From Acidimicrobiales bacterium (lineage in GTDB: Bacteria > Actinomycetota > Acidimicrobiia > Acidimicrobiales > Acidimicrobilacustridaceae): 64,000 nt of DNA. The notes beneath the pieces were generated by a model. The model had not been told where the DNA came from. It did not search any database and saw only the letters and a program-made list of their open reading frames with translations. Numbering within the stretch: the stretch's first letter is position 1; each line of letters starts with the position of its first letter. The stretch lies in assembly GCA_037478855.1 (NCBI GenBank), contig JBBFLY010000005.1:206-64205 (forward strand), written 5' to 3'. The translations under genes were made by a program, and so were the position numbers. Below, in pieces: positions 7,752 through 53,736 of this stretch.

Positions 7752-8903
7752 TCACCTCCTGGGCAGGCCGAGCACGCGCTCAGCCACGATGTTGCGGTTC
7801 ACCTCGCTGGTGCCCCCGGCGATCGACAGCGACCGCGACTGGGCCAGCTCGTCGGCCCAGGGGCCGCTGAGCGCAGCCATGCCGAGGACGTCGATCGCCA
7901 CCTCGCCGAGGAGCTGACCGGTGGCCGACCAGGCGAGCTTGATGATGCTCGACTCGGGTCCCGGCGCTGCGCCCGACGCAGCGGCGGCGATGGTGCGCTC
8001 GCCCAGCAGACGCAACAGCTCACCCGAGCACCACAGCGCCACCAGCCGGTCCCGGGCGAGCGGATCGGCCGTGGCGCCGGCCGCCCGGGCCTCCTCGAGC
8101 AGCTGGGCGATGCGTCGCCGCAGCGCAAGGTGCAGGGTGGCCACCCCGACCCGTTCGTTAGCGAGCGTGGCCGTGGCCACCCGCCAGCCCTGGTGCTCCT
8201 CGCCGAGCCGGGCGCTCACGGGCACACGCACGTGGTCGAAGAACAGCTCGTTGAACTCGGCGGTACCGACCATGGTCCGCAGCGGCCGCACCTCGATGCC
8301 AGGGCTGCGCATGTCCACCAGCAGCGCCGTGATGCCGGCGTGGCGGTTCGCCGAGGAAGGATCGGTGCGCACGAGCAGCTCGCACCAGTCGGCCACCGAC
8401 GCGAGCGTCGTCCAGAGCTTGCGGCCGGTCACGACGTAGTGGTCGCCGTCGCGCACGGCTTCGCACCGCAGGGAAGCCAGGTCCGACCCGGCGTCAGGCT
8501 CGGAGAACCCCTGGCACCAGATCTCGTCCCCGCGCAGCATCGGCGGCAGGTACCGGGCCTGCTGCTCGGGGGTCCCGAAGGCCATGATGGCGGGGGCGAT
8601 GTTCGGGATCCCGATGGCGTTGACGGGTCCGGGCGCGTCGGCGGCCGCCAGCTCCTCGGCGTGCGCGATCTGCTCGAGGACCCCGGCGTCGCGCCCACCC
8701 CAGGCCCGTGGCCAGCCCGGTGCAGCGTGGCCGGCGTCAGCGAGCGAGGCGTTCCACTCCCGGAGGCGAGCGAGGTGATCCGGATCGGGCGCGCCGTGGA
8801 ACCTGAGTCCCCGGTGGCGGTCCGTCAGGTGATCCGCCAGCCAGGCCCGCAGCTCGGCCCGGTAGGCGTCGGCGGCGGCGACGGCGTCGGGGTCGAGGCC
8901 CAT
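7752..8903 (-). CDS. Acyl-CoA dehydrogenase (long type)
   Basis: Track ORF 7752..8987. The likely start is MGLDPDAV (ATG at 8903). Motifs seen: GWPRAWGGRD, CQGFSEPDAGSDLASL, TLANERVG, IAGGTSEVNRNIVAERVLGLPR. Confidence 0.8.
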   Translation of the reverse strand: MGLDPDAVAAADAYRAELRAWLADHLTDRHRGLRFHGAPDPDHLARLREWNASLADAGHAAPGWPRAWGGRDAGVLEQIAHAEELAAADAPGPVNAIGIPNIAPAIMAFGTPEQQARYLPPMLRGDEIWCQGFSEPDAGSDLASLRCEAVRDGDHYVVTGRKLWTTLASVADWCELLVRTDPSSANRHAGITALLVDMRSPGIEVRPLRTMVGTAEFNELFFDHVRVPVSARLGEEHQGWRVATATLANERVGVATLHLALRRRIAQLLEEARAAGATADPLARDRLVALWCSGELLRLLGERTIAAAASGAAPGPESSIIKLAWSATGQLLGEVAIDVLGMAALSGPWADELAQSRSLSIAGGTSEVNRNIVAERVLGLPRR

Positions 8904-37768: not shown

Positions 37769-37788
37769 GGCTGACACCCATGTCAGCA
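37769..37788. promoter_or_regulatory. Palindromic operator box 10a: ggc TGACA ccca TGTCA gca
   Basis: Starts 20 bp upstream of the amidohydrolase start (37749, -). It is the first of two boxes separated by 2 bp. Confidence 0.7.
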
Positions 37789-43371: not shown

Positions 43372-44986
43372 CCGGGATGTTGCCGGGGATCTTCGCCCCG
43401 GACATGCCGTACACGTTGTTCGCGAAGATCACGGCGGCGCGGTTGCGGACGACGAACATGAAGTTGAGGTTCTCGGCCATCCGCTGCTGGATGATCTTCC
43501 ACTGCTCGATGCGCTTCTCGGTCGAGCTCGTCTGCTGGATCGCGTCCAGGGCAGCCTGGATCTGCGGGTCGGCGAGCCGGGTGAAGTTCAGCGCGAGCTG
43601 TCCCAGCGGCTTGACGGTCTCGGACGAGATCAGCACCGAGTCGATCGGGGGCTCACCGAAGGTGATGAAGCCGGTGGCTTCGAAGTTCCCGGTGAGTGCA
43701 TCCACGATGAGCGTGGCCTGATCGACCAGGTTCAGCTCGATGCTCACGCCCAGGTTCGCGGCCTGTGCCTGTGCTGCCTCACCGATCGTCTTGAACTGCG
43801 CGGTGCCGGGGAGGGTGAGCTTGAACGACAGCGGCTTGCCGGTCTTCTTCTTGTACTCCTCATGCAGCGCCTGGGCCTTCGCAGGGTCGTAGGTCGGATA
43901 CGTCGTCTCCGCGTAGTACGGCGAGCTCGGGCTGAAGAGGCTGTTCGACGGTGGGAACAGGCCGTAGTACTGCACCTGCGAGATGGACTTGGTGTCGAGA
44001 CCGGTCACCACGATCTGGCGGGCCAGCGGATCATCGAACGGCGGCTTGGCGGTGTTGAGGCCGACGAACTGGGTCTGATCCTCTGCGTTCGCGTTCGACA
44101 GGAGCTGGACCTGCCCGGCTTGCGCCTTCTCGAGGAACCGCTGGATCGGATCGGGCTCGAACGTGTTGAAGGCGTCGACCGACCCCGACTCGAGCGCGGC
44201 GCCCCGGGCGGTGGGATCGGCGAGCACGGTGAACTCGATGCCGTCGAGATACGGCAGCTGCGTTCCCGACTCGTCCTTCTGCCAGTAGTTGGGGTTCCGG
44301 GTGACGGTGAGCTTGCTGTCCTGCACCCAGTTCTGGAAGACGAACGGACCGGTACCGATCGGCTGCTGCGCCGGCGCCGACGAGGCGATCTGGGCAGGAG
44401 CGGCGACCACACCGGCCTGGGTGGTGAGCGAGTTCGGGAAGGTCGACCACGGCCGCTTCGTCGTCACCCGGACGGTGAGATCATCGACCACCTCGACCGA
44501 GCCGAGGAACGAGCCAATGGCGGCGCCGAGCAGCACCGAGGTGGCTGCCCGTTCCAGGTTGAGCCGCACCGCGTTGGCGTCGAGCTTCTCGCCGTTGTGG
44601 AACACGATGCCCGGGCGCAGCTTGATGGTCCACGACGTGAAGCTGTCGTTCGACTCGATCGACTCGGCGAGGTTCGGACGGGGGTTCCCGTCGGCGTCGA
44701 GCTCAGCGAGCCGGTCGAAGATCGCCCGGCTGACGATGGTGCCAGCACCAGCCCACTGGCTGTTGGCCGGGTCCCACCCAGTGGCCGTCTCCGCGTCGAG
44801 GCCGAACTTGAGCGTTCCACCCCGCTGCGGCGGCGTCGGAGCGGTCTTCGTCAGCTCCGTCTCCGGGATGGTGCGATCGGACGTGCCCTGCGAATCGCCA
44901 CTGCCACCGCACGCGGCCGCCAGCACGGTGACGGCGAGCAGGGCTGCGATGACGGACAGGCGCGCACGCGTCGTTGTCGACTTCAC
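43322..44986 (-). CDS. ABC-transporter substrate-binding lipoprotein, family 5 (peptide/nickel/opine type); no cognate permease in the window
   Basis: 554 aa with MKSTTTRARLSVIAALLAVTVLAAACGG (lipobox), GGTLKFGLDAE and WTIKLRPGIVFHNGEKLDA. Confidence 0.8.
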   Translation of the reverse strand: MKSTTTRARLSVIAALLAVTVLAAACGGSGDSQGTSDRTIPETELTKTAPTPPQRGGTLKFGLDAETATGWDPANSQWAGAGTIVSRAIFDRLAELDADGNPRPNLAESIESNDSFTSWTIKLRPGIVFHNGEKLDANAVRLNLERAATSVLLGAAIGSFLGSVEVVDDLTVRVTTKRPWSTFPNSLTTQAGVVAAPAQIASSAPAQQPIGTGPFVFQNWVQDSKLTVTRNPNYWQKDESGTQLPYLDGIEFTVLADPTARGAALESGSVDAFNTFEPDPIQRFLEKAQAGQVQLLSNANAEDQTQFVGLNTAKPPFDDPLARQIVVTGLDTKSISQVQYYGLFPPSNSLFSPSSPYYAETTYPTYDPAKAQALHEEYKKKTGKPLSFKLTLPGTAQFKTIGEAAQAQAANLGVSIELNLVDQATLIVDALTGNFEATGFITFGEPPIDSVLISSETVKPLGQLALNFTRLADPQIQAALDAIQQTSSTEKRIEQWKIIQQRMAENLNFMFVVRNRAAVIFANNVYGMSGAKIPGNIPVKATTSPFLGWAWKAA

Positions 44987-48087: not shown

Positions 48088-49080
48088 GTGCGCGACGCCG
48101 AACGCCTCCGCATCTTCGCCACCGCCCCATTGCGCGGCGAGGGCATCGAGACCCTCGAGCGTCTCGGCGAGCTGGTAGCCGAGCCGTGGATCCTCGGTCC
48201 CGACGAGCCGGTGCGGATCTACAACGACGAGCAGCTCGCCGCGAGGCTCGCCGAGATCGACGCCGACGTGGTCATCTGCGAGGCCGACAGCTGCCGGGGC
48301 CCGGTCCTCGACCTGGACCTGCGGGCGGTCTGCTCCACCCGGGGCGACCCGACCAACGTCGACGTCGCCAGAGCCACCGCTCGGGGCATCCCCGTGCTCC
48401 ACGCGCCCGGCCGCAACGCGGACGCGGTCGCCGAGCTCACCGTCGCGCTGCTCCTCGCCGTCACCCGGCTGATCATCCCCGCCGACCGCGACGTACGCGA
48501 GGGCGAGGTCTTCCGTGATGGCACGATCCCCTACCAGCGGTTCCGGGCCTGGCAGCTGGCCGGACGCACCGTCGGCATCGTCGGCCTCGGCGCGGTGGGG
48601 CGAGCGGCGCGTTGGCGGTTCGAGGGTCTCGGCATGCGGGTGATCTCGTTCGATCCCTTCAATGAGGAAGCGACCCACACGTCGCTCGATCAGCTGCTCG
48701 CCGAAGCCGATGTGGTGTCCATGCACGCGGCGCCCACGCCAGAGACGCTCGGGATGATGGGCGCGGCACAGTTCGCCCGCATGAAGAACGGTGCGGTCTA
48801 CCTCAACACCGCCCGGGCCGGCCTCCACGACCTCGATGCGCTCAGCGCAGCGCTCGCGAGCGGGCACCTCGCCGGCGCGGGTCTGGACCACTTCGACGGG
48901 GAGATGCTCCCCCCCGGACACCCCCTCACCGACATGCGCAACGTGGTGCTCACCCCGCACATCGGCGGGGCGACCTACGACACCGAGGTCAACCACACCC
49001 GGATGATCGCCGACGATCTGTCACGCCTCCTCGCCGGCGAGCGCCCGCTGCACTGCGTCAACCCGGAGGTGCTGACGTGA
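48088..49080 (+). CDS. D-isomer-specific 2-hydroxyacid dehydrogenase family (NAD-binding)
   Basis: Within track ORF 46132..49080, with GTG 48088 (or 48082). It has GRTVGIVGLGAVGRAARWRFEGLGMRVISFDP, YLNTARAGL, AGLDHFDGE and LTPHIGGAT. Confidence 0.8.
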   Translation: MRDAERLRIFATAPLRGEGIETLERLGELVAEPWILGPDEPVRIYNDEQLAARLAEIDADVVICEADSCRGPVLDLDLRAVCSTRGDPTNVDVARATARGIPVLHAPGRNADAVAELTVALLLAVTRLIIPADRDVREGEVFRDGTIPYQRFRAWQLAGRTVGIVGLGAVGRAARWRFEGLGMRVISFDPFNEEATHTSLDQLLAEADVVSMHAAPTPETLGMMGAAQFARMKNGAVYLNTARAGLHDLDALSAALASGHLAGAGLDHFDGEMLPPGHPLTDMRNVVLTPHIGGATYDTEVNHTRMIADDLSRLLAGERPLHCVNPEVLT

Positions 49081-49757
49081 ACCCCGAGCCCGCGAGCGAC
49101 AGGACAGCCGACGACGTCCGGGCCGAGGTGCTCGCGGTGGCGAAGGCCTTCCACGAGAAGGGACTCGTCGTGGGGACGGCCGGGAACGTCTCCGGTCGGA
49201 TGCCCGGAGGTGACACGATCTGCATGACCCCGTCCTCGACGCCCTACGAGACGATGACGCTCGACGATCTGGTGATCGTCGACCTCGACGGGAACAAGCT
49301 CGACGGCGCCGGCAGCCCCACCAGCGAGAGGTCGCTCCACCTGGAGTGCTACCGGCGCTACCCGGAGGTTGGTGGGGTCATCCACTCCCACGCGCCCTAC
49401 GCCTCGATGTTCGCGCTCGTACACCAGCCCATCCCCGCGCTCATCGAAGAGGTGGTCACCTACATCGGCGGCGACGTCCCCGTCTGCGACTACCGGATGA
49501 CCGGCACCGACGAGCTCGGCGTCGAGGTGGCCTCACGTCTGGCCGACCGCTCAGCGGCACTGATGGCGAACCACGGGCTGGTCTGCATCGGGAGGTCCCC
49601 GGACGACGCTCTGCACGCCTCCCTGGTGGTCGAGCGCACCGCACAGATCGTCTGGGGTGCCCGCGCGCTCGGTCAGGTCAGGCCGATCCCCGAGAGGTCC
49701 ACCACGGACTTCGCCAACGTCTACCGGTTCGTGCGAAGCAGCCTCTGGCGGTCCTAG
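49077..49757 (+). CDS. Class II aldolase/adducin-domain protein (paralogue of 6918..7661)
   Basis: 226 aa with GTAGNVSGRM, ERSLHLECYRRYPEVGGVIHSHAPY and ALMANHGLVCIGRS. The GTGA overlaps the preceding gene. Confidence 0.75.
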   Translation: MNPEPASDRTADDVRAEVLAVAKAFHEKGLVVGTAGNVSGRMPGGDTICMTPSSTPYETMTLDDLVIVDLDGNKLDGAGSPTSERSLHLECYRRYPEVGGVIHSHAPYASMFALVHQPIPALIEEVVTYIGGDVPVCDYRMTGTDELGVEVASRLADRSAALMANHGLVCIGRSPDDALHASLVVERTAQIVWGARALGQVRPIPERSTTDFANVYRFVRSSLWRS

Positions 49758-49768
49758 CCTCGTCTCTG

Positions 49769-50155
49769 ATGGCCACCTCCCGCGACCGCCTCGTCGAGGT
49801 CGCCGCCTACGACTCGATCGACGAAGCCCAGGCGGCGGTCGCATTCCTGGCCGACGATGCCGTCGACGCCAGGATCGTCGACGACGGCACCTTCGTGCAC
49901 CTGGTCGTCGCGTCCGCTGACGCGAACCGTGCCCGGGTCCTGCTCGGCCTGCCGGTCGCGCCGGCTGCGGCGGCGCCGAGCGCGCCCGACGATGGTGACG
50001 TCCGCCCTGGCGGCGAGGACGGAGACTGGGAGGCGCCGCTCAGCCCCTCCTCGATGTGGCGCAAGCCGCCGTGGATGCGAGCCGTGGTGGTGCTGGTGGT
50101 GGCCGGGATGCTGATCCCCGCGGTCCTCAGCCTGGTGAGCGTGCTCACCCGCTGA
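49769..50155 (+). CDS. Small membrane-anchored protein (N-terminal DUF2007-like domain, C-terminal TM helix)
   Basis: Within track ORF 49346..50155, with ATG 49769. Sequence: MATSRDRLVEVAAYDSIDEAQAAVAFLADDAVDARIVDDG...VVVLVVAGMLIPAVLSLVSVL. Confidence 0.45.
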   Translation: MATSRDRLVEVAAYDSIDEAQAAVAFLADDAVDARIVDDGTFVHLVVASADANRARVLLGLPVAPAAAAPSAPDDGDVRPGGEDGDWEAPLSPSSMWRKPPWMRAVVVLVVAGMLIPAVLSLVSVLTR

Positions 50156-50160
50156 GGGAC

Positions 50161-50424
50161 CCGAACCTGTCGGCTTCACCCACCCCACCCGAACCTGTCA
50201 GCCCAACCGGCGCAAAACGACACCCACGCTGACAGGTTCACCCACCCCACCCAAACCTGTCAGCCCAACCGGCGCAAAACGACACCCACGCTGACAAGTT
50301 CACCCACCCCACCCAAACCTGTCAGCCCAACCGACGCAAAACGACACCCACGCTGACAGGTTCGAGGAGACAGGTGCTGACAGGTTCGAGGAGACAGGTG
50401 CTGACAGCTTCGGGGTGACAGGTT
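50161..50424. repeat. Tandem repeat array: partial unit, then 3 x 62 bp (50177-50238, 50239-50300, 50301-50362), then 2 x 24 bp (50363-50386, 50387-50410) and a 14-bp remnant
   Basis: Read directly from the sequence. The 62-bp unit is cacccaccccaccc-(g/a)AACCTGTCAGC-ccaaccg(g/a)cgcaaaacgacacccac-GCTGACA(g/a)GTT, i.e. an 11-bp inverted repeat around a 25-nt loop. The 24-bp unit is cgaggagacaggtgctgacag(g/c)tt. The array fills the whole convergent intergenic gap. Confidence 0.9.
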
Positions 50425-50909
50425 CAGACCAGGATGCGCTCGTCGGGAGCGCGCACGCCGATGACCGCCAGCGTGCGTCCGAGCCCCAGGAACAGCCCAC
50501 AGCAGATGGTGAGATCCGCCAGCTCGTCATCGGCGAACTCGGCCCGCATGCGAGTCCAGAACTCCTCGTCCATGCCCAGGTGGTCAAGCGCGAAGCGCTG
50601 CGCGAACTCCGCCGCCAGGCGCTCCCGCTGCGAGAGCGCGGTGCTCTCCCGCCAGTTGGCCACCTCCGCGTAGAAGCCCTCGTCCGCGCCCACCGCCTCA
50701 CCGTCCCGAGCGCGGGTGCCCTGGCAGACGGCGCAGTCGTTGATGAGCGCGATCGTCCAACGCGCGGCTTCACGCTCTCGGACCGGCAGCTTGCTGTTGC
50801 CGTAGACCGCCTCCGAGAACGCGCCCATCCCTGCGGCCATCTCGGCGCGCAGAAGTGCCCAGTCGACGTGCTCGCCGAAGCCTCGCTCGGGAAACGCGAT
50901 GCGTGCCAT
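50424..50909 (-). CDS. Carboxymuconolactone decarboxylase (AhpD-like, CMD) family protein
   Basis: Within track ORF 50424..51587. The start is MARIAFPERGFGEHVDW (ATG 50909, in frame). It has a CxxC in LINDCAVCQGTRA. Confidence 0.55.
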   Translation of the reverse strand: MARIAFPERGFGEHVDWALLRAEMAAGMGAFSEAVYGNSKLPVREREAARWTIALINDCAVCQGTRARDGEAVGADEGFYAEVANWRESTALSQRERLAAEFAQRFALDHLGMDEEFWTRMRAEFADDELADLTICCGLFLGLGRTLAVIGVRAPDERILV

Positions 50910-50944
50910 GCGCGACAGCGTAGAAGCGGTCAGAGCTGGCCGCC

Positions 50945-51712
50945 TCAGCGCAGGGCGCCCGGCTCGTCGAGCCAGCGGTTGAGCGCGCGGGTGCGGGCGT
51001 TGCGCAGGGTGAAGCACTGGATGACCGCAGTGCGCACGCGGTGCTGGACGTGTGCGGAGGTGACGACCTTGCGCAGCAGGTAGTCGGCCGCGTCGCCGTG
51101 GTCCTCCTCCGCGTACGCGTGCACCCGGAAGTTCTCGACGTCGAGCCCGTAGTGGTCGCGCATGCCCTCGTAGAGCAGCTTGGCGTAGCCCGTCGACGCG
51201 GCGAAGCGCTCGCCCGCCCACCCGAAGGCTGCGAGACCCTCCTCGTAGGAGCGGCGCATGTAGTAGAGACTGCCGAGCACCAGCCCGATGGTCTCGGGCA
51301 TGGGCACGAAGCTGACCAGCTCCTCGTCCGGGATGCCGAGCATCCGAGCCCATTCGACCTTCATGTCCACGTGGTTGCGGTCGCCGGTGAAACCCGTCTC
51401 GTCCGCCAGGTTCTGCAACCAGTGGTGGAAGTGCTCGCTCGACTCCATGTCGAGGGCGTCGAAGTCCGGGGCGTTGGAGACCAGCGACCCGAACTCCGAG
51501 GTGTACCAGACGCCGAGGTAGTAGTACTCCTTGCAGAGCCGCCGAAGGTACTCGAGCGACAGCGTCCCGTCGGCCACGTGCTCCCACACCCGGTTGCGCT
51601 CGGTGCAGATCTCGGCCTGGATCTTCTCGAGCTCGTTCATGAACTCGTCCACCGGCAAGGCCTCAGCCGTGCCGCCCCTGCGGATGTCCTTGAACTCACG
51701 GGCCTGGCTCAT
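50945..51712 (-). CDS. TenA/PqqC-like (haem-oxygenase-like fold, iron-containing redox enzyme family) protein
   Basis: 255 aa, all-helical and His/Glu/Asp-rich: SEHFHHWLQNLADETG...HVDMKVEWARMLGI...VHAYAEEDHGDAADYLL. Confidence 0.5.
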   Translation of the reverse strand: MSQAREFKDIRRGGTAEALPVDEFMNELEKIQAEICTERNRVWEHVADGTLSLEYLRRLCKEYYYLGVWYTSEFGSLVSNAPDFDALDMESSEHFHHWLQNLADETGFTGDRNHVDMKVEWARMLGIPDEELVSFVPMPETIGLVLGSLYYMRRSYEEGLAAFGWAGERFAASTGYAKLLYEGMRDHYGLDVENFRVHAYAEEDHGDAADYLLRKVVTSAHVQHRVRTAVIQCFTLRNARTRALNRWLDEPGALR

Positions 51713-51767
51713 GGGAAGAGACCTCCTCGATCGCCCGGAGGACGCCCCCGGGCCCGGTGTTAGACTT

Positions 51768-51787
51768 TTATGACACGAACGTCAGCT
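51768..51787. promoter_or_regulatory. Palindromic operator box 13: tta TGACA cgaa CGTCA gct
   Basis: Lies in the divergent region between the PqqC-like gene (51712, -) and hyuB-like (ATG 51862, +). Confidence 0.65.
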
Positions 51788-51861
51788 TCGTGGCAAGCTT
51801 CGCAGGTCAGGGGTCGGGCACGGGCGACGGCCCGGTGCCCCGAACCAGGGGGGAGCCGCAG

Positions 51862-53736
51862 ATGCACGTCGACCTGGTCAGGCTGGCAGGGAGCAGGGGT
51901 CGCCTGGTCGAGCACACCACCGTCGACCCCGTCACCGCCGAGGTCATCCGGGACTACCTGGAGACCGTCTGCTTCGAGATGGCCACGTACGTCTCGCGCA
52001 CCGCCACCACCCCGATCCTCAACCAGAGCAACGAGCGCAACGCGACCATCCTCGACGCGCAGGGCAGGCTCGCCGCCCTCTCGGTGGGGATCCCGCAGTT
52101 CATGCTGACCTCCACGCTGCCGGTGCGCTTCGCGCTCGAGTTCCTCGGCGTCGACGAGTTCCGTGAGGGTGACGTTTTCGCCGCCAACGACCCTTACCAC
52201 GGCGGAGGCCACCTCCCCGACTACAACGTGTTCGCACCCGTCTTCGCCGACGACCCGGCTGCGCCGAGCGGCCGGAGAATGGTGCTGATCGCCAGCATCC
52301 AGTGCCACCACGGCGACACCGGCGGCGCGGTGCCGGGGGGCTACAACGTGACCGCCAACGACGTGTGGGGCGAAGGCGTCCGCTGGCCGGTGCTGAAGGT
52401 GGTCGATCAGGGACGCGAGCGGCGCGACGTGCTCTACGCGCTGCAGGCGAACAACCGCCTGCCCGACTACCTCGGCGACCTCCGGGCCCAGATCGGCGCC
52501 GCGCAGCTCGCCGCCAAGCGCCTCGGTGAGCTGCTGGACCGGTGGGGCGCAGCCACGGTCGAGCAGTCGGTCGACTACATGATCGACTACGCGGCGAGGC
52601 GCTTCCGTGAGGAGGTGCGCAGCTGGCCCGACGGGGTGTACGAGGCCGACACCTACGTCGACCACGACCCCCTCGGCCACCCGGACGTGCACCTGCACGT
52701 CAAGGTCACCGTCGCCGGGGATCGGCTCACGATCGACTTCACCGGTTCCGACGACCGTCAGGAGCTGCAGGCCTGGTCGACGTTCGGCAACACCCGCGGC
52801 TACACGGTCGGCCAGATCGCCGCGATGATGGATCCGGAGATCCCGAAGAACGAGGGGTTCTTCGACTCGATCGAGCTCATCGTGCCGCAGGGCTGCGTGC
52901 TCAACCCCCATCCGGGCAGACCGGTCAGCGCGGGCACCCACCATCCGGGAGCCGAGGTCGGAGAGGTCATCGCGCTCGCCATGCAGCATGTGCTGCCGGA
53001 CAAGGCCGTCCCGCAGGTGTACAAGACCGGCATCCCGACGATCATCACCGGCATCGACCCGAGGACCGGACAACCCTTCACCGACCACTCGGCGGAGGTG
53101 TACGCGGGCTGGTGCAACGCCGCGAAGGGCATGGACGCCTGGGGCTGCCAGGCCGCCGCGTTCGGGAACCTCTGGAAGGCGACCGCCGAGATCAACGAGA
53201 GCCTCTACCCGCACATCCAGTGGAGCCGCGACTACCGCACCGACTCCGGCGGCCCCGGCCAGTGGCGGGGCCTGTGCGGCAGCCACTACGTGAAGGAGGT
53301 CCGGGTCGACGCCAAGGTCTACACCTACGTGGTGGGCATGAAGTACCCGATGCCCGGCATCGCGGGTGGCAAGCCGGGTGCGCCCAACAAGCTCACGATC
53401 CGCTGGGGCAGCGACGACCCCTACGTGGTCGAGCACACGGCGAACTGGGTGCCGATGAGCGCCGGGGAGAAGATCAACTACGACTACGGCGGCGGAGGCG
53501 GCTGGGGTGATCCTCTCGATCGCGACCCCCGGGCGGTGCTCGACGACGTGCTCGACGAGTACGTCTCCGTCGAAGGTGCCGAGCGCGACTACGGCGTCGT
53601 GCTACGGGGCTCGCTCGCCGATCTCACCCTCGAGATCGACGAGGCCGCCACGGCAGAGCTGCGGGCGTCCCGACGAGTACGAGCGCCGGGACAGCCCGAC
53701 GGAGGGGTCTTCGGCGAGACCGAGTGGGAAGGGTGA
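51862..53736 (+). CDS. Hydantoinase B/oxoprolinase (HyuB) family subunit
   Basis: Within track ORF 51757..53736. ATG 51862 is preceded by GGGGGGAG. It has DPVTAEVIRDYLETVCFEMATYVSRTATTPILNQSNERN and NDPYHGGGHLPDYNVFAPVF. Confidence 0.8.
   Translation: MHVDLVRLAGSRGRLVEHTTVDPVTAEVIRDYLETVCFEMATYVSRTATTPILNQSNERNATILDAQGRLAALSVGIPQFMLTSTLPVRFALEFLGVDEFREGDVFAANDPYHGGGHLPDYNVFAPVFADDPAAPSGRRMVLIASIQCHHGDTGGAVPGGYNVTANDVWGEGVRWPVLKVVDQGRERRDVLYALQANNRLPDYLGDLRAQIGAAQLAAKRLGELLDRWGAATVEQSVDYMIDYAARRFREEVRSWPDGVYEADTYVDHDPLGHPDVHLHVKVTVAGDRLTIDFTGSDDRQELQAWSTFGNTRGYTVGQIAAMMDPEIPKNEGFFDSIELIVPQGCVLNPHPGRPVSAGTHHPGAEVGEVIALAMQHVLPDKAVPQVYKTGIPTIITGIDPRTGQPFTDHSAEVYAGWCNAAKGMDAWGCQAAAFGNLWKATAEINESLYPHIQWSRDYRTDSGGPGQWRGLCGSHYVKEVRVDAKVYTYVVGMKYPMPGIAGGKPGAPNKLTIRWGSDDPYVVEHTANWVPMSAGEKINYDYGGGGGWGDPLDRDPRAVLDDVLDEYVSVEGAERDYGVVLRGSLADLTLEIDEAATAELRASRRVRAPGQPDGGVFGETEWEG

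Follow-up and report, generated by a model that had tools for sequence, protein, structure and literature searches.

A tandem hairpin array in an Acidimicrobiales genome: probable satellite copies of a palindrome family paired with a winged-helix, Vsr-like nuclease gene

Introduction

Between two convergent genes of an Acidimicrobiales bacterium lies an array of nearly identical hairpins in tandem, and the question raised by this locus is whether the array serves its neighbors or belongs to something larger. The array was noticed in a stretch of 64,000 nucleotides, the window, which spans positions 206 to 64205 of contig C5 (assembly GCA_037478855.1) in a 3.03-Mb draft genome of 70% G+C, 159 contigs and 99.4% completeness. 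A sequence-only reading had described hairpin repeats filling the gap, and this description is real and essentially correct: three 62-bp repeats lie between two opposed stops. Four explanations had been offered, namely a bidirectional terminator stack, a structured small RNA, an element resembling repetitive extragenic palindromic (REP) sequences or miniature inverted-repeat transposable elements (MITEs), and an array of decoy half-sites for a regulator. The evidence assembled here makes it likely that the array consists of satellite copies from a repeat-and-enzyme system comparable to that of REP sequences and their associated tyrosine transposases (RAYTs), built on an unrelated enzyme that joins a winged helix to a Vsr-like nuclease. 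Genomes are labeled where they need to be told apart: G000 is the window genome, G001 and G002 are its congeners, G008 represents another genus, and G041 to G043 are metagenome-assembled genomes (MAGs) of Microthrixaceae.

A dispersed palindrome family

The repeated element is a 49-nt palindrome, GAACCTGTCAGC-N25-GCTGACAGGTTC, usually accompanied by a C-rich tract on its 5' side and a G-rich tract on its 3' side. A census of the window genome with an nhmmer profile recovered 45 units at 32 intergenic loci, several of them at contig ends. The 11-mer arm occurs 64 times, and a search for arm pairs that tolerated up to two mismatches per arm and 20-30 nt between arms returned 42 units, all with exactly 25 nt between the arms. 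The family exceeds chance, because the reversed arm pattern, used as a control, gave 0 matches in every genome searched and because the array region folds far better than its shuffles (z = -6.1 on the minus strand, at -147.4 kcal/mol, and -5.7 on the plus strand). Of the four explanations, the REP/MITE-like element was the right one, the unit being a dispersed family.

Tandem pairs or triples occur at ten loci, with periods of 61-72 bp. The interiors of units are 92% identical within arrays and 56% identical between loci (random expectation 30%), and arm identity between loci is 91%. Arrays therefore arise by local duplication of the unit together with its linker, and the suspicion of a recent amplification at the window locus is borne out. 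Hairpin loci are hot spots of tandem repetition more generally: among the 37 strongest tandem-repeat loci in the genome, 12 are adjacent to family arms. Repeats of this kind at hairpin loci include arm-only arrays on C43 (15 bp x 5.9) and C143 (18 bp x 5.7), GGGATG x 12 on C121 and a 17-bp repeat x 5 on C51. The flanks of individual units, for example at C121:4683-4754, C51:36-126, C43:21921-22009 and C143:1193-1361, are C-rich on the 5' side and G-rich on the 3' side (GGGTGGGG, GGGGAT x 12), and arm-only tandem arrays sit 5' of full units. Such C-rich and G-rich flanks also adjoin sister palindrome families in other genomes. Two further identities were considered for the family and set aside. 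Solitary arms occur at about chance frequency, which speaks against uptake-sequence-like single arms, and integron attC or recombinase core sites were dropped since there are no cassettes, the arms lie 25 nt apart and the units are repeated without open reading frames (ORFs).

The palindrome family is patchy among fairly close relatives. No unit with up to two mismatches was present in any of 40 relatives, both congeners included, nor in any of 400 sampled genomes of the class Acidimicrobiia, representing 178 genera. An exact scan of one genome per species across 185,579 species found the unit only in three MAGs labeled 'uncultured Microthrixaceae', which hold 34, 16 and 17 units. Judged by RpoB identity to the window genome, the unit is absent at 97% (the congeners) and present at 90-91% (the three MAGs), with another genus of the family at 92%. 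Units in the MAGs share the arms and the 25-nt spacing and have a different interior consensus, ..AGCGAC..loop..GTCGCT.. as against ..GTGTCG-TTTTC-CGCC.. in the window genome. In metagenome contigs the family pattern turned up in only two further contigs, and a search for strain variation there did not find the exact interior of the window array.

Both congeners keep the genes that flank the array, at 80-86% DNA identity, and the same two stops are separated there by only 46-48 nt, in which a small GC hairpin (CGGAGGGGCCCCTCCG) lies. It follows that the window lineage gained the 268-nt array at a site formerly occupied by a plain hairpin. A search of the genome and its relatives, as the sequence-only reading had suggested, thus returned many dispersed loci and no array in the congeners' orthologous gap, both of which count against a specific regulatory role. 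For annotation, such arrays are better described as satellites of a repeat family than as locus-specific regulatory devices.

A nuclease gene framed by the palindromes

Among the 32 loci, one pair stands out. The only family loci of the window genome less than 3 kb apart are both on C82, with three units upstream (C82:7039-7213) and two downstream (8190-8298) of a single gene (C82:7252-8181, 310 aa). In G042 and in G043, the only family loci that lie this close together likewise frame a homologous gene of about 310 aa. The C82 gene is the sole gene of the window genome to combine an AbiEi-type winged helix with a Vsr/DUF559 nuclease. Pfam assigns AbiEi_4 to the N-terminal part and REase MTES_1575/DUF559 to the C-terminal part, and an AlphaFold model of the protein has a predicted local distance difference test (pLDDT) score of 92.4. 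Structure comparison of this model relates its N-terminal two-thirds to AbiEi (6y8q) and Rv2827c (1zel), and its C-terminal domain to Vsr (1vsr), the catalytic domain of I-Bth0305I (3r3p) and NGO0050 (3hrl). The nuclease site looks intact, as all of 37 homologues share residues E206, D237, E248, H255 and D264.

A RAYT or other Y1 transposase (PF01797) was rejected as the partner, as the profile has no match in G000, G001, G002 or G041 to G043 and did match in control genomes. An AbiEii (DUF1814) toxin partner is also absent.

Homologous genes and their own palindromes

The pairing of gene and palindrome extends beyond the family that carries the window array. In seven genomes, at least 9 of 21 paralogues lie between copies of one palindrome, and those in the congeners, G008 and the MAGs are each framed by a different palindrome of 40-53 nt. 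These framing palindromes are in turn dispersed families in their own genomes: when the palindromes were joined end to end and used as BLAST queries, they gave 118 matches in G008, 47 in G001, 34 in G002, 56 in G041 and 45 in G042. Sister families are often tandem, with a period of about 62 nt.

To guard against bias, a further eight homologues were chosen from public assemblies by protein similarity alone, at 93% to 41% identity. Each of the eight, including one from the cultured Iamia sp. SCSIO 61187, has copies of a single palindrome on either side. The protein with 93% identity is framed by GAACCTGTCAGC units. Those with 53-60% identity have arms that start CGAAC (CGAACTGTTCA, CGAACTGGTTGC, CGAACTGGCCGC, CGAACTGGTTACG), those near 50% have (G/C)GTGGCTCAC at their flanks, GAACTCGGTGGCAG frames the Iamia protein, and more distant proteins have unrelated arms. 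Related proteins thus have related arms.

The window genome also contains a second palindrome family (CGAACTGTTCATGGATCCGCGGTCATGG.CCGCGTGCT..TGAACGGTTCG, period 62), at C7:42115-42343 and 43873-43995 and at C46:13055-13104. In the congeners this second family, with arm CGAACTGTTCA, predominates and frames the nuclease gene; in the window genome it has few copies and no cognate gene. Its two arrays on C7 lie on both sides of an ORF for a membrane protein of about 500 aa. In the congener G002, a broken copy of the nuclease gene (C23:92203-92590) adjoins a unit of the same CGAACTGTTCA family.

A proposed repeat-and-enzyme system

Taken together, these observations suggest that the array is probably a set of satellite copies belonging to a REP/RAYT-like system founded on the winged-helix and Vsr-like nuclease, and we infer that the nuclease moves the repeats. 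At this locus a palindrome of the family took the place of the short ancestral hairpin spacer between the convergent stops and was then multiplied there, through tandem duplication both of unit and linker (3 x 62 bp) and of the arm by itself (3 x 24 bp). In the proposed scheme, the winged-helix part of the C82 protein would read the conserved arms and the nuclease part would act on the palindrome, so that the protein would spread the repeats, maintain them, or both, as RAYTs do with REP sequences and REPINs. The protein's requirements would keep the arms and the 25-nt spacing constant and leave the interior to drift. Situated in a convergent gap, the hairpins probably also stop or stabilize both transcripts, as their predecessor presumably did; for the units in this gap, a role at transcript ends is plausible.

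A bolder and more tentative proposal is that nucleases of the AbiEi-winged-helix and Vsr/DUF559 type could be the actinobacterial counterpart of RAYTs in general. Each would recognize the arms of its own palindrome of about 50 nt and nick or cut it to copy and maintain a genome-wide family, protein and arm would co-evolve (CGAACCTGTCAGC here, CGAACTGTTCA in the congeners), and the window array would be an amplified satellite site. We regard this as possible, and somewhat short of an even prospect. AbiEi-fold proteins are known to bind inverted repeats (PMC7319586). Literature searches returned nothing relevant that joins DUF559 with palindromic repeats or with AbiEi, and a system of nuclease and palindrome appears to be undescribed in the literature searched.

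Several observations weigh against the interpretation of the array as part of a REP/RAYT-like system. On C7, the second palindrome family lies on both sides of an unrelated ORF, for a membrane protein, so that framing alone is not specific to nuclease genes. The MAG with the most units (34; G041, MFD05502.bin.2.91) carries no close homologue of the framed gene, and the five distant homologues that it does carry have other framing palindromes or lack them. In G042 and G043, the proteins with the same arms as the window genome are only 43% identical to the C82 protein, whereas proteins with 57-60% identity use other arms; specificity therefore does not track overall identity. The nuclease gene family also occurs in genomes without the GAACCTGTCAGC family, so that the link between gene and repeat lies solely in how each gene is matched with a repeat of its own, and not in presence or absence. 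The C82 locus does not compare with the congeners as a clean insertion, and no target-site duplication was recognized there. Gene contexts of the units were called by a crude method based on G+C at third codon positions (GC3), and binding and cleavage by the C82 protein, like mobility of the repeats, are inferred.

The comparison at C82 deserves a closer description. A clean insertion of the framed gene was rejected, as the congeners carry another gene, of 375 aa, at this locus and no empty site can be read. Where C82:6600-7040 is set against G002 C11:90068-91257, the congeners' 375-aa gene lies on the other strand and a 116-nt stretch of it still aligns in the window genome. Because of this remnant, the locus is taken to be remodeled rather than the product of a simple insertion. 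No synteny was found between the C82 gene and its 57%-identical homologue in G001.

Were the proposal correct, it would describe a second, independently evolved symbiosis of repeat and enzyme, resting on a nuclease of PD-(D/E)xK type, and partnerships of the REP/RAYT kind would have arisen more than once, on unrelated enzymes. To our knowledge, the sequence-conserved palindromes at gene ends in high-GC Gram-positive bacteria, TRIT (see below) included, have no known origin or partner protein. We likewise know of no role for the genes annotated as DUF559 or 'very short patch repair endonuclease', which are abundant in Actinobacteria. The pairing of gene and palindrome would explain both. It would also offer a testable code of protein-DNA recognition, since related proteins have related arms.

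Constraints on the unit and alternative explanations

What is conserved in a unit bears on whether a protein, a transcript or a host factor is its reader. In 37 distinct units of the window genome, 78.7% of cells pair as against 80.1% in column shuffles, and in 70 MAG units no variable pair stands convincingly above its shuffles; a first impression of compensatory changes in the interior was rejected on these grounds. The two halves of the palindrome vary independently, and uncompensated AA-to-TT flips recur at the outermost arm positions. More than 110 interiors contain no insertion or deletion despite many substitutions. Conserved arms at an exact spacing fit a protein that would read both arms at a fixed distance better than they fit a selected RNA fold.

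The strongest of the alternatives, which we nevertheless consider unlikely, is that the units are host-selected hairpins at transcript ends, like the 'tuberculosis Rho-independent terminator' (TRIT) of mycobacteria, with a host factor that reads the stem, an incidental link to the nuclease and no movement. Much about their position agrees with this. Units fold strongly and lie close behind stops; convergent gaps hold 30 of the 63 MAG loci, usually at a distance of 7-50 nt from either stop; in the window genome, where the T-rich apex serves to orient the units, 12 of 14 units in co-directional gaps have the sense orientation relative to the upstream gene; the congeners have an ordinary GC hairpin at the same place; and there is a precedent of 147 sequence-conserved palindromes at gene ends (PMC3152330). 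The signals expected of a terminator are less in evidence. No U-tract, T-run or terminator-like site was found in 49000-52000, so that of the features of an intrinsic (Rho-independent) terminator the hairpin is present and the direct U-tract is absent; mycobacterial RNA polymerase needs the U-tract, and hairpins lacking it do not terminate the enzyme in vitro (PMC3993855). The missing compensatory changes point the same way, as does a sense-strand fold energy in co-directional gaps that is no better than antisense. About 13-21% of loci are in divergent gaps, absence from congeners with the same genes makes no conserved host need evident, and the gene-specific framing in all eight homologues would be left unexplained. 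The bidirectional terminator stack of the sequence-only reading is a possible by-product of position.

Considerably less probable is that the units are MITEs of the classical kind, deletion derivatives of an insertion sequence that cannot move on their own and depend on its transposase to recognize their 12-bp terminal inverted repeats. Conserved inverted arms around a variable interior, a dispersed and lineage-specific family, and units at contig ends are all in favor of this. Known MITEs are far longer than the 49-nt unit; apart from the arms around the nuclease gene, no inverted pair lies 0.6-3 kb apart, no target-site duplication was seen at unit flanks, and the Y1 transposase is missing. 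A classical insertion sequence with the same ends was not found in the assembly, which is 99.4% complete but fragmented and so could still hide one.

Very improbable, by comparison, is that the array binds the TetR-type regulator of the catabolic cluster around it, as a decoy or as an auxiliary site. In favor of this, the arm AACCTGTCA is one base off an operator half-site AACCTGACA, and two exact CTGACA-N4-TGTCAG boxes lie in the window. These boxes, at 969-984 and 37771-37786 (0.03 expected in the window), are the only ones in the whole genome and are presumably operators of the local catabolic regulon. A TetR operator is a 20-bp palindrome with core TGACR-N4-YGTCA in a promoter region; in the units the hexamers are everted, 27 nt apart and situated between two stops. 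Just 1 of the 32 hairpin loci lies in the catabolic cluster, and the shared hexamer occurs about 590 times in the genome. We treat the resemblance as chance, because the family is genome-wide, is present with identical arms in other genera, and is absent from congeners that keep the flanking genes, and the half-site decoy proposed earlier is not supported.

Equally remote is a discrete structured small RNA or cis-regulatory RNA from the array, which the minus-strand fold energy would suit; both strands fold well because the element is a palindrome, no promoter-like site was found, Rfam gave no match at E up to 10, and covariation and strand bias in energy are lacking, so that the small RNA suggested by the sequence-only reading has no support.

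Layout of the array and neighboring genes

Tandem Repeats Finder and a repeat search agree on the structure of the array (Table 1). The 62-bp unit is present in 3.0 copies (50175-50363, 96% matches, score 357) and its period is made up of the 49-nt palindrome and a 13-nt C-rich linker ACCCACCCCACCC; the 24-bp unit is also present in 3.0 copies (93%, score 123) and consists of a right arm with a partial arm. Some details of the earlier description needed amendment. The inverted repeat AACCTGTCAGC / GCTGACAGGTT, which flanks 25 nt in each 62-bp unit, had been given as an 11-bp perfect repeat throughout; this holds for units 1 and 3, the arms of unit 1 being 12 bp long, and unit 2 has an arm mismatch (GCTGACAAGTT). 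The 24-bp repeats exist and number three rather than two, the third being 83% identical. The array was right to be placed with its end exactly at the stop of the carboxymuconolactone decarboxylase (CMD) family gene, and at its other end a degenerate arm begins slightly farther from the stop than the 5 bp first given. The difference between units, stated as one or two substitutions, is 2 of 49 positions for every pair of the three. All three units have the same material between their arms, in keeping with the view that the array is not CRISPR-like. A genome-wide tandem-repeat scan did find true CRISPR arrays elsewhere, at C136:40-2205, C42:15784-16300, C145:109-820 and C158:13-515, with repeats GGATCACCCCCGCATGCGCGGGGAGCAC and GTCACAGGCCCCCGGAAATCCGATACGGATTGAAAC, counted as two arrays. 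The product of the upstream gene has an acidic N-terminal part and a single C-terminal hydrophobic helix.

Table 1. Features of the window locus (window positions) and palindromes framing homologous genes in other genomes.
Feature	Position	Strand	Remarks
Upstream gene, 128-aa protein	49769-50155	+	ORF list; stop TGA 50153-50155; no Pfam match; both congeners keep it up to the stop
Solitary degenerate arm GAACCTGTCGGC, 1 mismatch to family arm	50163-50174	none	Repeat search; starts 7 nt past TGA
C-rich linker TTCACCCACCCCACCC (minus strand G-rich)	50175-50190	none	Again at 50240-50252 and 50302-50314
Unit 1, 49-nt palindrome GAACCTGTCAGC-N25-GCTGACAGGTTC	50191-50239	-	Minus is the T-rich apex strand
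Unit 2, single arm mismatch (GCTGACAAGTTC)	50253-50301	-	Repeat and arm searches
Unit 3, single interior substitution, G to A at 50334	50315-50363	-	Repeat and arm searches
Arm-only tandem repeats, 3 x 24 bp (GCTGACAGGTTCGAGGAGACAGGT)	50352-50423	-	First copy overlaps right arm of unit 3
CMD family gene, 161 aa, convergent	50424-50909	-	Pfam PF02627, E 1.9e-8; stop 50424-50426
Framing palindrome CGAACTGTTCA..TGAACAGTTCG	G001 L085		
Framing palindrome GGTGGCTCACC..GGTGAGCCACC	G008 L086		Three units each side
Framing palindrome TTCTGGCATGCGTTTTGCACCCC..	G008 L102		
Framing palindrome TCTGTGCACCTG..	G041 L093		
Framing palindrome GGCGTTGAT.CGCACCCC..	G041 L098		
Framing palindrome GATCGTGCAGC..	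G042 L100		

Comparison with known systems

The closest known system is that of the REP/REPIN-RAYT 'REPtrons' of Proteobacteria (PMC3116915, PMC3337134). Both comprise short extragenic palindromes by the tens (45 units at 32 loci here), frequently grouped or in tandem; in both, an enzyme gene present in one copy per family stands between members of that repeat family, paralogues are paired with different families, and the distribution is patchy among close relatives. The framed gene, however, is no RAYT: RAYTs are Y1 (HUH) transposases, and in place of a flanked PF01797 gene the enzyme here joins an AbiEi-type winged helix to a Vsr/DUF559 nuclease of PD-(D/E)xK type. The units are single 49-nt palindromes with a fixed 25-nt interior rather than REP doublets, their arms start GAAC rather than the GTAG of REP sequences, and the host belongs to the Actinomycetota (class Acidimicrobiia).

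Among actinobacterial hairpin families, the closest one described is TRIT (PMC3152330), which is likewise a sequence-conserved palindromic hairpin with many copies at gene termini, bidirectional by symmetry and lacking a canonical U-tail. Position and host set the two apart, as reports of TRIT are confined to Mycobacterium and place it across stop codons (around -8), whereas the units here lie 7-50 nt downstream.

The C82 protein itself has relatives in two directions. With AbiEi antitoxins (Streptococcus agalactiae, 6y8q; Mycobacterium tuberculosis Rv2827c, 1zel; PMC7319586) it shares the fold of its N-terminal two-thirds, and AbiEi proteins bind inverted repeats as the C82 protein is proposed to do; unlike them, it lacks an AbiEii (DUF1814) partner, a Vsr-like nuclease replaces the C-terminal domain, and the inverted repeats form a genome-wide family and not just an operator. 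Unlike the Vsr-fold homing endonuclease I-Bth0305I (3r3p), it is not the product of an intron- or intein-borne gene; its gene retains a complete recognition-like palindrome on each flank, and solo copies of the palindrome are scattered. The two nonetheless share the fold of the catalytic domain, and a selfish gene that cuts a specific site is a workable model for the system proposed here.
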